A DNA stretch of 64,000 nt from a virus (Duplodnaviria > Caudoviricetes): the IMG/VR virus record IMGVR_UViG_3300021978_000001, positions 96,001 through 160,000 of that record; one strand, written 5' to 3'. A program made the translations under genes and the position numbers. How positions within the stretch are numbered: the first letter of the stretch is position 1; the number at the start of each line of letters is the position of its first letter. The notes under the pieces were generated by a model, which was not told where the DNA came from, did not search any database, and saw only the letters and a list, made by a program, of their open reading frames with translations. This document shows positions 4,670-56,905 of the stretch, piece after piece.

Positions 4670-5446
4670 TTACTTCCTCTTGGTCAGGGTAGATAACTCT
4701 TCTGGAGTAAACAACGGAGTGAGCCCGAGGTCTTCGCGAGTCCACATGCAGACAGTGTGGTAGTCTTCACAGATCTCCTCTTCAGGAGCGAGCCACCCCC
4801 ACACGTGACAGGAAGCGTGACTCCACATGACATCGAGACCTGGTGCGTTATGGTAAAACCACTGAAACATCTCGGTCCGGGACTCCGCGCCACAGAACTC
4901 CTGTTCGACCTGCTCGATGACTTCCATAATCGAAACGGTCTCACCCTCGAACTCGATAGAGACGCCATCTGCTGGTTTCTCAGCGAGCAAGAGCACCAGA
5001 CGCAGCTCACCCTCGCCATCCTCTGCGATCGTAAATTCACGTCGGATCGCGAGCACACGCTCACCCAATACCTCGAAGAACCTCGCCGCCAGTTGACGGT
5101 CCGCGCCTTCGTATCCCGAATGAGCCCATTCGATTTGAGCATAACGGAGTTGAGATGAAAGCACCACCAAAGTGTTCATCGACACGCGATGAAAGATGCC
5201 CTGGTCATCCACGATATGAAACCGATTGGTGGTCTCGTCATGCATCCAGACCATACCTTCACTAAGCTCGACATCACGCACAGACAACCTCCTCTTCGGG
5301 CCGGGAATCAACTCGGGCTTGAGCGCCCCCAGGCGACGCATACGATGCTCCTGTAGTGTCGCGTGAGCATAGATCATCGCCAGAAGCAAAAAGATCCCCA
5401 CGCCACCTGTCATCACGCCCATAAGGAAGGCAATATTCACGGCCAA
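4670..5446 (-). CDS. hypothetical protein with N-terminal TM helix
   Basis: Hydrophobic N-terminus, 258 aa. Confidence 0.65.
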   Translation of the reverse strand: MAVNIAFLMGVMTGGVGIFLLLAMIYAHATLQEHRMRRLGALKPELIPGPKRRLSVRDVELSEGMVWMHDETTNRFHIVDDQGIFHRVSMNTLVVLSSQLRYAQIEWAHSGYEGADRQLAARFFEVLGERVLAIRREFTIAEDGEGELRLVLLLAEKPADGVSIEFEGETVSIMEVIEQVEQEFCGAESRTEMFQWFYHNAPGLDVMWSHASCHVWGWLAPEEEICEDYHTVCMWTREDLGLTPLFTPEELSTLTKRK

Positions 5447-23993: not shown

Positions 23994-24038
23994 CTCTTGA
24001 GACTGACACTAAGAATGAATGCGAACCCTGAAGGAAAG

Positions 24039-24110
24039 TGACCGTGGGGGGAATCGAACCCCCAACCATGGCTTTTAGAGAGCCTTGCTCTGCCGTTGAG
24101 CTACACGGTC
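24039..24110 (-). tRNA. amber suppressor tRNA (anticodon CTA)
   Basis: Full cloverleaf GACCGTG/CACGGTC, D-stem GCTC/GAGC, loop CTCTAAA, T-arm GGGGG-TTCGATT-CCCCC. Confidence 0.85.
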
Positions 24111-24213: not shown

Positions 24214-24241
24214 GGTACATCCCCGCAGGTGCGGGGAGCCT
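24214..24241 (-). CRISPR. solitary, diverged I-E-like repeat
   Basis: AGGCTCCCCGCACCTGCGGGGATGTACC; CCCCGC-N4-GCGGGG hairpin in the same register as the array repeat. Confidence 0.6.
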
Positions 24242-31051: not shown

Positions 31052-31195
31052 GGACCATCCCCGCATACGCGGGGAACACGCTCCACAACACACTCGGGCG
31101 CCTGGGTATACCCACGACGCAGATCCGCTTGACGGTGGAGCGACAGGCGGAAGTGGTACGGCAAGGCGAACCATCCCCGCGCACGCGGGGAACAT
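31052..31195 (-). CRISPR. two I-E-like repeats (31052-31079, 31168-31195) separated by 88 nt, between tRNA-Ile and tRNA-Met
   Basis: Near-identical to the array repeat. Confidence 0.85.
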
Positions 31196-31666: not shown

Positions 31667-31757
31667 GCGCCATCCCCGCATGCGCGGGGAACACTAAATC
31701 TGAACAAACACAAGCAGAGCGCCCGAGATGAACCATCCCAGCATATGCAGGGAAATC
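31667..31757 (-). CRISPR. repeat-spacer-repeat unit (31667-31694 and degenerate 31730-31757, 35-nt spacer) upstream of tRNA-Val
   Basis: GTGTTCCCCGCGCATGCGGGGATGGCGC plus a degenerate copy. Confidence 0.75.
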
Positions 31758-31960: not shown

Positions 31961-32009
31961 TTTCTTCCTGAACCGGGCAAAAAGTTCGATCGGAGTGCAT
32001 CCGATCCAG

Positions 32010-32086
32010 AGCAGCCAGTGGGAATCGAACCCACAACCTCCTCGGGACCATCACCACAGATGTGGTGAAAATTGAGCCATGGCTGC
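32010..32086 (-). ncRNA. tRNA-CRISPR repeat chimera
   Basis: Acceptor GCAGCCA/TGGCTGC and intact T arm; the D/anticodon region is a 28-nt repeat variant at 32045-32072. Confidence 0.75.
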
Positions 32087-51658: not shown

Positions 51659-52102
51659 TTATTCGGTATCGAGATCTGGATTGAGATCAGTCTCGGGGAG
51701 GGACTCGACCGTGAAGAGGCGACGCCCGATAGAGTGATAGTCCATGCGCCTACGAAGGGGCTCGACCATGCGCTCTGCAATATGCTCACGTCCATGGTGA
51801 TTCGCGATCATGCGACTTAACCAGCTCTGCCATTCATGATCGCGACGCTCTGCTTGAGGCAATGTGCCGATGCCTTGCGCGAGCGCGTCTCCGAGCACGG
51901 TGCGCACGTACACATCCCGAACGTAATGCCTATGCCGTGACATCGCAGGAGAGTCGAAAGGCTCATCGCTGTCGAGCCAGATCGCCTCATCCAAAATACC
52001 CGCAAGCGTCAGAGCTTGATCCCACAAGCCTCGGTTCATCATCGAACGCAGATCCCCGAAAGTCAGCGCACGCACGTCTTCGGCTGACCAGAGGTCACTC
52101 AT
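51659..52102 (-). CDS. hypothetical protein
   Basis: ORF track, adjusted start. Confidence 0.6.
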   Translation of the reverse strand: MSDLWSAEDVRALTFGDLRSMMNRGLWDQALTLAGILDEAIWLDSDEPFDSPAMSRHRHYVRDVYVRTVLGDALAQGIGTLPQAERRDHEWQSWLSRMIANHHGREHIAERMVEPLRRRMDYHSIGRRLFTVESLPETDLNPDLDTE

Positions 52103-52775
52103 CGCTTCCGTCGCTTTCCGTAATCTCGAAGAGAGGAGCAAAGACGCGATGAAACTTAACTGGTTGCTCTTGTAGGGACTGCTTCGTGACTTGGCGTAGA
52201 CGATCGGCCTCCCTCATTTCAGCGTTGGCGCGAATGCGTTGCTGCACGGTGAGCACTTCTGAGGGAGCAGGGATGCAAACCGCGTCGGGATACCTCTCGG
52301 AGCGCCAACGTGCGAGCGCCTCGCGCAACCCAGTGACGTAATCCTCCATATCCTCGGGAGAAACGTTCGTCACGCAAGAGGTGCTTGGGATACGCGAAGT
52401 CGTCACGTTCTTACACGTCACGTTCTCAGCAAGCCAACACTTGCGCGCTTTCTGTTGCCTTTCCACGTAGGAAAGCTCCTTGCTTGCTTTCTCGCTGGTC
52501 TCATCGTTGACTTCCGCACACGTATCCGAGAGCTTCGCAGAGAAAGCCTTTGTGGCCTCGGTCGCACCCGAAAACGAAAAACCCCAGCATTCCATGGCAC
52601 GTGTTGCGATCTCTAGCGATAAACGCCTGACCGCTTCAGGGTTTGAGACCTTGCCCTCACCTTCGCAACCCGTGCAAGGATTCTCGACGGTCACCAAGCC
52701 CACATACTTACCCTGACCATCGCAACGGTCACAACGTTTATACAGATCCTCAAGCTCCCAACTACCCTTACCCAT
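52095..52775 (-). CDS. hypothetical protein with N-terminal DnaJ-like Zn finger
   Basis: CDRCDGQGKYVGLVTVENPCTGCEGEG. Confidence 0.65.
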   Translation of the reverse strand: MGKGSWELEDLYKRCDRCDGQGKYVGLVTVENPCTGCEGEGKVSNPEAVRRLSLEIATRAMECWGFSFSGATEATKAFSAKLSDTCAEVNDETSEKASKELSYVERQQKARKCWLAENVTCKNVTTSRIPSTSCVTNVSPEDMEDYVTGLREALARWRSERYPDAVCIPAPSEVLTVQQRIRANAEMREADRLRQVTKQSLQEQPVKFHRVFAPLFEITESDGSDE

Positions 52776-52805
52776 AACTATCCTCCGCGTTTCATGTGAT
52801 CAAAA

Positions 52806-52896
52806 AGAGCCGGGTGGGACTCGAACCCACGACATACCGCTTAAAAGGCGGATAGGACCATCCCCGCATGTGCGAGGAACAATAGCCCCACCCGGC
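52806..52896 (-). ncRNA. tRNA-Lys(TTT)-CRISPR repeat chimera
   Basis: Repeat TTGTTCCTCGCACATGCGGGGATGGTCC (52855-52882) in place of the D arm, followed by CCGC-CTTTTAA-GCGG, T arm and acceptor 3' strand. Confidence 0.75.
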
Positions 52897-52922
52897 AGCG
52901 TGCCTCACAAAGAGGCACCACC

Positions 52923-53315
52923 TTAGATGCTCGTTTCTGTGCTTCGCTCAAGGCGCCAGGGGTGATTGTCCCTGCGCAACAGAGGATACCCTGTCCCCGC
53001 TTCATCCTGCAACCAGAAGTGAGCATAAGGCACAGACACCATGTCGAACGTCAACCAAAGCGGACCCGACACAGGTTCTTCGCCCGTTGCCTCGTGGCGT
53101 GAAATCCCGCATTCGAGATCCCGTCGCGCCTTGATGCCCATACGCCCGAGGTCTGTCGAGGCTGTGCGGGCCAGCCAGATCACTGCAAGATCCTGTGCGT
53201 CTTCGAGTGTGGCACATTCTCCCAGCGCGTGAACAGGACGATGCCGCTTGCGCTCGGAGCGCTTGGCGCCCTCGGTCGTGTCACGGCGGGAGAGATCGAC
53301 GATGTGATACTTCAT
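52923..53315 (-). CDS. hypothetical protein
   Basis: ORF track. Confidence 0.55.
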   Translation of the reverse strand: MKYHIVDLSRRDTTEGAKRSERKRHRPVHALGECATLEDAQDLAVIWLARTASTDLGRMGIKARRDLECGISRHEATGEEPVSGPLWLTFDMVSVPYAHFWLQDEAGTGYPLLRRDNHPWRLERSTETSI

Positions 53316-53582
53316 GGTGATGTTGTGCTAGAAGGTGAGAAAAGTGAGCGCGCTCCTCGCCGCAATTTCAAGGTGCATACACACCAGGAAACCTGTAGAC
53401 CGCTTCAAGGTCGTCGGAAGCCACACCGGCGTACTGTCGATCAAACAAGTAACGCAGGCTATCTAGGAGAACCAGGTTACTCACCTGGGGGCTTTCCCGA
53501 CGAGGAGCAAACGCTCGGTGTCTCCTGATCAATGGAGACACTACCTGTATACCAGAAGAGGCGCAGACCGTAAAAGGAAAGT

Positions 53583-53909
53583 TCAACCTTTCTTGAAAAA
53601 ACCTGCGAACATGCTCGCGTGTGCCAGGTTCTTCCCCACGAGCGTCACCTCGCGTGGATCTCCCCCACGGTCCACATCGCGATCATCGTAGAGACAGATC
53701 AGGGCCTCTTCCATGCTCTCGATCACACCGAGCTGGTCGAGCGTCTCGCGATCCTTGCCCGTGCGATACGCGAAGCTCACGAACATGCCGTCATCCTCGA
53801 ACTCACACGAGACCACAGCGGCGGGCCAGAGCGTGCGCACGAAGGCGACCCACTCGCGGACCGTGTAGTCTCTCGGGTCTGAGATGACGTAATCGAAGCC
53901 TCCGATCAT
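53583..53909 (-). CDS. hypothetical protein
   Basis: ATGA overlap. Confidence 0.6.
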   Translation of the reverse strand: MIGGFDYVISDPRDYTVREWVAFVRTLWPAAVVSCEFEDDGMFVSFAYRTGKDRETLDQLGVIESMEEALICLYDDRDVDRGGDPREVTLVGKNLAHASMFAGFFKKG

Positions 53910-54475
53910 TCCTCTTCTCCGTGTAACTCATCCCATAACTCGGGGAGCTGTCGATTCAGTTCGTAATGCATGAGCGCCTCGCGCCCCGCCAGGGTGATGT
54001 ACTGGAAGTTGTCGTTTCGGATCTCACTCAACCCCGCCTGGAGCAGCTCACCCACCACATGGTGGATAGGCTTGAGCGGGAACCCCGCCGCCGCGTTGTA
54101 GAACGCCCACTGCCCATCCTCATAGACATGAACATGCTGCTTGTGCTCCGTCTCCTCGACGAGGGCACACAGCGTCTCGCTATCCAAGCCTCCATGCTGA
54201 TAAAGGAAGCCAAGGACCTTGTAATGTACAGGGAGAGGATCACGAAGCCCGTCTTGTCCCTCGGGTTTGGACTCGTCTTGAGGCTCGATCAAGGTCATAT
54301 CTCCCGCGTCCGCAGGAGGATCGTCATTGGGATCGAGCAGCGTGAGCTTACCCTTGTCCCAGTTGAGCTGGCGGACACGCTTCACGAAGCGCTGGCGCGT
54401 CCTGGGCATGTAAATCCCCATCCCCACCGCGACAAGGAAGATCAGCAATACGGCACATGCCAGGATAGGCGTCAC
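53906..54475 (-). CDS. hypothetical membrane-anchored protein
   Basis: N-terminal TM helix. Confidence 0.6.
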   Translation of the reverse strand: MTPILACAVLLIFLVAVGMGIYMPRTRQRFVKRVRQLNWDKGKLTLLDPNDDPPADAGDMTLIEPQDESKPEGQDGLRDPLPVHYKVLGFLYQHGGLDSETLCALVEETEHKQHVHVYEDGQWAFYNAAAGFPLKPIHHVVGELLQAGLSEIRNDNFQYITLAGREALMHYELNRQLPELWDELHGEEE

Positions 54476-56668: not shown

Positions 56669-56905
56669 ATGAAAAAACCCGGGCCACCTTGTTCCTCTTC
56701 TGTAGAGAGGTTGGGGTGGCCCGGGTCTAAACACGCTGTGCAACATCGTACAACAAGGCGTCAGGAGATCGGGCCTCCCGTAAAGTATACCTTATTGTAT
56801 TTATAGCTGCGCATGACTTGTGTTCCTTCCTTTGCAGGATACGTTCGTGAATCGAAAGGTATAACGCGCCCTACCCAGGGTCTATTCCGTGGACTCGAAC
56901 TTTTT

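Follow-up and report, generated by a model that had tools for sequence, protein, structure and literature searches.

The stretch of DNA analysed here, referred to as the window, is 64,000 nucleotides (nt) long and corresponds to positions 96001-160000 of the virus record IMGVR_UViG_3300021978_000001, a complete phage genome of 437,490 bp with direct terminal repeats. The phage (~437 kb) is of marine origin and carries its own CRISPR system. At positions 52806-52896 of the window, on the minus strand, a repeat of this system is fused to what is left of a transfer RNA (tRNA) gene, tRNA-Lys(TTT). The resulting chimera lies between two open reading frames (ORFs) of the same strand, 27 nt past the first and ~30 nt ahead of the second, at a place where sister phages have a tRNA gene.

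Read 5' to 3' on the minus strand, the locus opens with a 7-bp hairpin (GTGCCTC/GAGGCAC, loop TTTGT; 52900-52918), located just past the stop codon of the upstream ORF and not followed by a T-run. Next comes a 13-nt strand, GCCGGGTGGGGCT (52884-52896), followed after one nt by a 28-nt type I-E CRISPR repeat (52855-52882, with a T at 52854 as its 29th nt). The repeat contains a Cas6e-type hairpin (52862-52877) with a 6-bp stem that includes one U-G pair and an ACAU loop. Cas6e of Escherichia coli and Thermus thermophilus cuts at the 3' base of the repeat hairpin; by analogy, a cut is predicted at 52862/52861, which would leave a putative 8-nt 5' handle, AUGGUCCU (52854-52861). Directly 3' of the repeat there are 50 nt of tRNA-Lys, comprising the anticodon arm (TTT), variable loop, T arm and 3' acceptor strand. 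Within this part, a guide-length segment of 32 nt (52822-52853) corresponds to tRNA-Lys(UUU) positions 27-58, that is, the anticodon arm, the variable loop and the 5' half of the T arm, and the adjoining 13 nt, AGTCCCACCCGGC (52809-52821), derive from the end of the T loop and the 3' strands of the T and acceptor stems. The locus closes with TCT and a T-run (52800-52808), a likely 3' end or terminator tract that would end an RNA ~60 nt from the predicted Cas6e cut. No sigma-70-like promoter was found in 52000-54000.

The repeat differs from the phage consensus, GTGTTCCCCGCGCATGCGGGGATGGTCC, at 3 of 28 positions, and a 26-nt repeat pattern allowing up to three mismatches gave five matches in the window, compared to none expected from shuffled sequences. 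True array repeats of the phage, at genome positions 26133 and 26072, show the same stem variant (CCTCGC/GCGGGG) and the same loop (ACAT). As the initial annotation of the window had pointed out, this stem pairs on the minus strand only, the T-G pair being specific to the strand on which all the arrays and tRNAs lie. The element thus has the length (28-29 nt), the hairpin and the 8-nt handle of a type I-E repeat and agrees with the arrays of this genome. It is a solitary repeat, separated from its nearest neighbours by 4.4 kb and 20.8 kb, and no second repeat is present downstream that would delimit a spacer with 61-nt periodicity; a helix strand and the T-run follow the 32 nt.

The whole genome contains 33 tRNA genes, all on the minus strand, and ~60 copies of the type I-E-like repeat, also on the minus strand, distributed among ~12 small arrays with a 61-nt period and several solitary positions. 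A search of the genome for cas genes revealed Cas3, Cas7e, Cas6e (94-96 bits), Cas5e and a fused Cse1-Cse2, and neither Cas1 nor Cas2 was detectable in its 437,490 bp. The cognate Cas6e and Cascade-Cas3 genes expected for a type I-E CRISPR RNA (crRNA) unit are encoded in the genome that carries the fusion. The Cse1-Cse2 fusion is a single protein of 725 amino acids (L046:1651-3828; genome 13651-15828, minus strand) that joins the large and small subunits of Cascade, with an N-terminus similar to Cse1 and a C-terminus similar to Cse2, both matches being weak. The passages of Al-Shayeb et al. (2020, PMC7162821) that deal with huge-phage CRISPR systems describe compact arrays and an interference module without Cas1, Cas2 or Cas4, with some spacers targeting other phages. 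The present system shares the interference module, the compact arrays and the lack of adaptation genes, a make-up typical of CRISPR systems of huge phages, whereas tRNA-embedded repeats or helix-closed single-repeat units are not mentioned in those passages.

Sister lineages (L039, L040 and L168/L169) were found as Logan contigs through homologues of both flanking ORFs. This comparison with relatives, which had been proposed to look for an uninterrupted tRNA, revealed an intact tRNA-Lys(TTT) gene at the syntenic site in all three lineages (66.9 bits), which makes the intact gene the ancestral state and the chimera a derived one. The 3' 50 nt of the chimera, counted from the first base of the anticodon stem, are identical to those of L039 (50/50), with 93% identity in the upstream flank and 76% in the downstream one. 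A CRISPR repeat and a tRNA-Lys(UUU) gene are truly fused here, on the strand of the tRNA. In the alignment, ~36 nt of the sisters are replaced by ~68 nt. Lost are a 9-nt spacer, the 5' acceptor strand GGGCCGG and the entire D arm; gained are, in this order, the 7-bp hairpin (which the sisters lack), GCT, the 13-nt strand, one A, and the 28-nt repeat plus T. The first five nt of the 13-nt strand, GCCGG, correspond to ancestral acceptor positions 3-7 and are the sole recognisable remnant of the old acceptor strand, whereas the next 8 nt differ from the ancestral D-stem region and all pair with the 3' part of the gene, in the T loop and the 3' strand of the T stem. The proposal that the repeat had been put in place of the D arm was therefore right as to the loss of this arm, but the change is more than a swap, the 5' third of the gene having been rewritten as a strand that pairs with the tRNA 3' end. 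Neither the genome nor any of the fetched loci contains a second copy of the inserted 43 nt that could have served as donor. As judged from these alignments, a derived, lineage-specific rebuild of the tRNA-Lys gene around the phage's own CRISPR repeat is well supported.

The same allele was followed in other samples. In the probable source sample, a Logan contig extends over the stretch with zero differences, and 52404-52904 is spanned, with nine substitutions, by a contig of 525 nt that comes from seawater sampled in another study (X2). As this contig crosses the region without gaps, X2 carries the chimera, and its recurrence in a second sample excludes an assembly error. A sediment run of a third study (X14), itself a possible source, contains 11 of 11 sampled chimera words, whereas a 69-kb contig of X5, belonging to L039, has the intact allele instead, seen as the replacement joint. 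The closest strain that bears the chimera differs by 1.8% in the flanks. A pattern running from the handle to the T loop gave only two chance matches in IMG/VR (L004, L005) and no further chimera, and a tRNA pattern detected two intact tRNA-Lys genes there, in unrelated phages (L002, L003). Metagenomes of the Joint Genome Institute (JGI) yielded five intact tRNA-Lys genes and zero chimeras, a protein search of IMG/VR with the downstream ORF gave no match, and two distant relatives (L171, L174) have tRNA clusters without repeats. No RNA run was found among the runs listed as containing the stretch, and one metatranscriptome of the source sample has next to none of its words, a result with no bearing on expression. 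On the sequences at hand the chimera is confined to one lineage. The initial annotation would have taken an occurrence in this genome only for a one-off recombination; the restriction to a single lineage agrees with that view, but its recurrence in one or more other samples, among them X2 of another study, does not.

When the chimera was assayed as a tRNA, ARAGORN made no call at the locus. The Rfam model RF00005 scored 30.5 bits, against a cut-off of 29 and the 66.9 bits of the intact sister gene, in an alignment that deletes the D arm and takes the bases GGGAUGG of the repeat as acceptor strand. The D arm is absent, its loop and the 3' strand of its stem having been displaced by the 28-nt repeat, and the predicted fold lacks a 7-bp acceptor stem stacked on a 5-bp T stem. 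A D-armless tRNA-like fold after cleavage was also considered and rejected on energy (-14.6 kcal/mol). By the definition of a tRNA, the chimera is no longer one. The initial annotation had noted that the window has no intact tRNA-Lys(TTT), and this extends to the whole genome, whose 33 tRNA genes include no other tRNA-Lys(UUU).

The 91-nt chimera RNA is predicted to fold with -47.7 kcal/mol (z = -4.5), keeping the repeat hairpin and pairing 52884-52896 with 52809-52821 in a 13-bp helix that includes one G-U pair. The pair probability is ~1 for this helix and ~0 for the T stem, and the closed form (-42.8 kcal/mol) is favoured over a cloverleaf-like form in which the T arm is kept (-31.9 kcal/mol, 11 worse). 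Because the 13-bp helix competes with the T arm, a tRNA-like shape is not expected of this RNA. Pairing between the 5' and 3' flanks had been noted over 10 nt; it is real and longer than that, but it is not a preserved acceptor stem, for which the sisters have GGGCCGG. Relative to the tRNA register the pairing 5' strand is shifted by 2 nt, so that its pairing abolishes the T stem.

The position of this helix follows the geometry of a CRISPR unit. It begins 1 nt ahead of the repeat and resumes right past guide nucleotide 32, so that it encloses 62 nt, equal to one repeat plus a 32-nt segment of spacer length, compared with the 61-nt period of the arrays. A helix of at least 13 bp between such flanks is present at 1.2-1.9% of control positions in the window. 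After the predicted cut, the two pieces would still be annealed (predicted -47.6 kcal/mol), and from this model a Cas6e-bound hairpin would stay beside the 3' end of the guide.

Flank helices of at least 11 bp were detected at four of the eight solitary or isolated repeats of the window, compared to a background of 5-7.5%: at the chimera (13 bp), 31168 (12 bp), 31052 (11 bp) and 31667 (11 bp). In three of these four units the 5' helix strand ends 1-7 nt ahead of the repeat. This recurrence suggests a selected RNA architecture rather than random scars. However, at 31052 and 31667 the helix overlaps the distal would-be guide, and at 31168 it starts 2 nt past the repeat; therefore, the function of these units need not equal that of the chimera. 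The three repeats (31052-31079, 31168-31195 and 31667-31694) lie in a tRNA operon, and in those at 31052 and 31667 a gap of 4-6 nt separates the end of the 3' strand from the next tRNA. In the first chimera of the window (32009-32086), a hairpin is likewise present, 3 nt upstream of the 5' strand, an acceptor helix of 7-8 bp also encloses 62 nt, and a terminator hairpin starts 5 nt past guide position 32. A degenerate repeat-like hairpin (handle ATGTACC) was also observed at 24214-24241, ~100 nt upstream of an amber-suppressor tRNA (24038-24110).

Solitary repeats entered the tRNA region several times in this phage group. One that is private to L039 (L039:6012-6039) lies ahead of a tRNA-Phe gene and shows compensatory stem changes (CCCTGT/GCAGGG); it is part of 30 nt that stand in place of 12 nt (window 56782-56793) inside a 17-codon ORF, whose reading frame is preserved, and the 32 nt after it match the window at 31 of 32 positions. 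Another, private to L040 (L040:9326-9353), is intergenic, upstream of the homologue of ORF 52923-53315, with 41 nt for 42 nt (window 53434-53475), and the uninterrupted form of its site is present in this phage and in L039.

The 32-nt segment of the chimera was then compared with possible targets. It matches L039 at 32 of 32 positions and L040/L168 at 30 of 32, and the mismatched bases, at guide positions 3 and 17, are partners in a single compensatory anticodon-stem pair, C-G to T-A. This pair change could be an escape, although two alleles cannot separate this from chance. The intact genes concerned are at L040:9896-9970 and L168:3409-3483, and the change at position 3 is within the type I-E seed. 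In all the sisters, AAC occupies positions -3 to -1 of the match. The general consensus of the type I-E protospacer-adjacent motif (PAM) is AAN, and AAC is experimentally functional in the type I-E system of Streptomyces mobaraensis, which has 29-nt repeats and 32-nt spacers (PMC13572051); the PAM of the S. avermitilis type I-E system is AAG (PMC4762764). The phage resembles the S. mobaraensis and E. coli systems in the 29-nt repeat, the hairpin, the 32-nt spacer and the geometry of the 8-nt handle (PMC13572051), whereas its large and small subunits are fused and divergent and Cas1 and Cas2 are missing. By comparison with S. mobaraensis, the AAC (AAN) at the flank of the sister allele is a putative PAM for the phage. 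In the arrays of the phage, the base that follows the 28-nt repeat is G in 20 cases, C in 16, T in 8 and A in 1, a tally that would fit an AAB PAM if this base is PAM-derived as in E. coli.

Against 185,579 prokaryotic species genomes the guide found no match, even with every sixth position left free, and because of this the sole known targets are the sister phages. The host is not identified by the repeat either, as this type is widespread, mostly in Actinomycetota.

We favour, tentatively, the reading that a tRNA-Lys(UUU) allele was converted into a single-repeat crRNA-like unit whose guide is directed against relatives, and reason that the chimera would behave, more than anything else, as a crRNA unit that belongs to the type I-E system of the phage but is built from a single repeat. 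The transcript would run in the same direction as the flanking genes, with the new helix enclosing one repeat and the 32-nt segment. The phage's own Cas6e would cut at the 3' base of the repeat hairpin, yielding an RNA of ~60 nt composed of the 8-nt handle, the 32-nt guide, the 13-nt helix strand and a U-tract end. As the 13-bp helix would tether the Cas6e-bound hairpin to the 3' end of the guide, a single repeat might supply both ends of the crRNA. Loaded into the phage Cascade, the guide could direct Cas3 to the intact tRNA-Lys(UUU) genes of co-infecting relatives, and the presence of the repeat at the PAM position would protect the phage's own locus. The junction at the PAM site would also fit an origin by recombination of a tRNA-derived spacer with the phage's own tRNA gene.

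Several observations weigh against this reading. No closing helix of this kind accompanies the solitary repeats of unrelated phages, nor is it a known stand-in for a 3' repeat hairpin, and one quasi-palindrome template switch in the old acceptor could write the 13-nt complement without selection. Since the event may be recent, the unchanged 3' part counts for little as evidence. The uninterrupted alleles at L039:6012 and L040:9326 carry TTT and AGT (or CAG), not AAN. Finally, the ~55 array spacers have no match in the fetched sister loci or in the phage's own genome, so that warfare between these relatives is not otherwise documented.

A broader version of the crRNA reading is unlikely and offered only as a speculation. 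According to it, a phage without Cas1 and Cas2 would make guides by planting single repeats in its own conserved genes, so that the next 32 nt would become a crRNA against relatives in which the gene is uninterrupted. The product would be a helix-tied, self-closing, circularly permuted crRNA, and recombinational repair after an attack could copy the repeat into the victim, resulting in a homing-like spread through phage tRNA genes.

Known elements of several kinds are close to the chimera. The viral solitary repeat units, or RNA anti-CRISPRs (Racrs), described by Camara-Wilpert et al. (2023, PMC10651486) also have a lone CRISPR repeat in a viral genome, with its hairpin retained. However, the chimera repeat belongs to the phage's own I-E system and not to that of a host, it has no promoter directly upstream, and it is fused to a tRNA, with 32 nt behind it that match relatives perfectly and a 13-bp helix that closes the unit. 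The own upstream promoter and the lack of association with cas genes that characterise Racrs are thus absent here. A second kind is that of the CRISPR mini-arrays borne by viruses, whose part in conflicts between related viruses was reportedly described by Medvedeva et al. in 2019. Like their spacers, the guide-length sequence of the chimera matches a closely related virus and not a host, but there is only one repeat, the guide is the remnant of a resident gene and the Cas proteins are encoded by the phage, in contrast to the repeat-spacer-repeat structure and the host Cas proteins of the mini-arrays (reviewed in PMC11656645). The third kind, the delocalised, atypical crRNAs of CRISPR-associated transposons that home beside tRNA genes (PMC11656645), resembles the chimera in a guide outside the arrays, an atypical repeat context and a tRNA locus as target; in contrast, the chimera is without a transposase, its guide lies within a former tRNA gene and the Cas3 nuclease is present. 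The nearest descriptions are the solitary repeat units or Racrs and the mini-arrays, and the chimera lacks defining features of both.

Among the alternatives, the one that survives best, possible although rather doubtful, is a recombination scar in a dead tRNA gene. A repeat, with or without a tRNA-derived spacer, would have recombined into the gene, through spacer-protospacer recombination or as an escape from targeting by relatives, and the remnant would be functionless even if Cas6e cuts it. Recombination of this kind between phages and CRISPR arrays was reportedly described by Varble et al. in 2019, and it would join a repeat to phage DNA at the protospacer start, beside the PAM; the AAC-flanked junction is what this route leads one to expect. 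The occurrence of the chimera in one lineage while three sisters retain the tRNA, the lack of an upstream promoter-like site, and the solitary repeats of the sisters, located at lineage-private sites with messy replacements (30 nt in place of 12 nt, and 41 nt in place of 42 nt), also fit a scar, and 50 nt without a change would be in keeping with an event of recent date. However, spacer-protospacer recombination accounts for the origin only, and not for the rewritten 5' strand or the unit-length helix. A scar does not predict a new 13-nt complement with its borders at one repeat-plus-32-nt unit, nor flank helices that recur at other solitary repeats, and the missing donor of the inserted 43 nt and the persistence of the allele across samples of different studies also speak against it.

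An RNA-processing or structural module is improbable, though it explains part of the data. In such a module, cutting by Cas6e would replace the tRNA punctuation by RNase P and RNase Z between the flanking ORFs, or would regulate these ORFs, with the helix insulating or stabilising the cut ends and no targeting of DNA. The location of the element between two same-strand ORFs (27 nt and ~30 nt away), where the sisters have a tRNA, agrees with this function, as do the repeats scattered among the cas and tRNA genes of the phage and the helices that partly cover the would-be guide at several solitary repeats. It leaves unexplained the AAC-flanked junction, the 32 free nt between the handle and the helix and the unchanged 3' part of the tRNA, and no natural punctuation of mRNA by Cas6e was found in the literature searched.

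A Racr-like decoy, absorbing the Cas6e and Cas7 of a host type I-E system with a similar repeat, is highly improbable. Viral solitary repeats can act as decoys, two type I-E candidates being active (PMC10651486), and this repeat type is common in bacterial genomes. Nevertheless, the phage itself has a complete interference system to which this repeat belongs, so that a decoy would poison both systems equally; there is no promoter directly upstream; and the description of Racr candidates has them apart from cas genes (PMC10651486), whereas the cognate ones are present here. A working tRNA-Lys(UUU) in which a Cas6e-binding hairpin substitutes for the D arm is barely credible, since the unbroken sequence of the anticodon and T arms, an Rfam score slightly above the cut-off and a genome without any other tRNA-Lys(UUU) are outweighed by the silence of ARAGORN, the use of repeat bases as acceptor strand with deletion of the D arm that Rfam needs, a true 5' strand 2 nt off register that gives an acceptor plus T stack of 10 bp instead of 12, the T-stem pair probability of ~0 and the 66.9 bits of the intact sister gene.

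Viral solitary repeats are currently read as decoys against host immunity, whereas here the repeat is that of the phage's own Cascade-Cas3 system. The gene it occupies is hard for relatives to mutate, and the sequence after the repeat matches these relatives perfectly, next to an AAC flank. If the chimera does act as a guide, it would be a natural crRNA from a single repeat and would reveal a route to new guides without spacer acquisition, with tRNA genes as battlegrounds of competing huge phages. A 60-nt, helix-closed, single-repeat guide would also be of interest for the design of compact type I guide cassettes. Even if it is only a scar, it remains a record of recombination between a CRISPR repeat and a phage tRNA gene and of the loss of a phage tRNA.

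Other features were observed in the arrays of the phage. A conserved leader of ~80 nt ending in ...aacatttgaaga is common to five arrays (genome ~26.3, 29.0, 31.2, 405.8 and 408.6 kb), and a shorter leader, ...gtgacaagatgtctcaga, is common to five others. As leaders are shared among arrays, the arrays seem to have multiplied by duplication of leader plus array. Two spacers, at genome positions 25950 and 28906, have diverged from a common sequence, and a spacer kept in two diverged copies had no match in IMG/VR. One array was compared with cultured phages, and only repeat-like mini-arrays of Streptomyces phages were matched. Finally, five I-E-like repeats were detected at positions 4773-5010 of an unrelated viral contig of 109 kb (L021, IMGVR_UViG_3300048687_000113), the last four of them with a 49-nt period that leaves spacers of ~21 nt.
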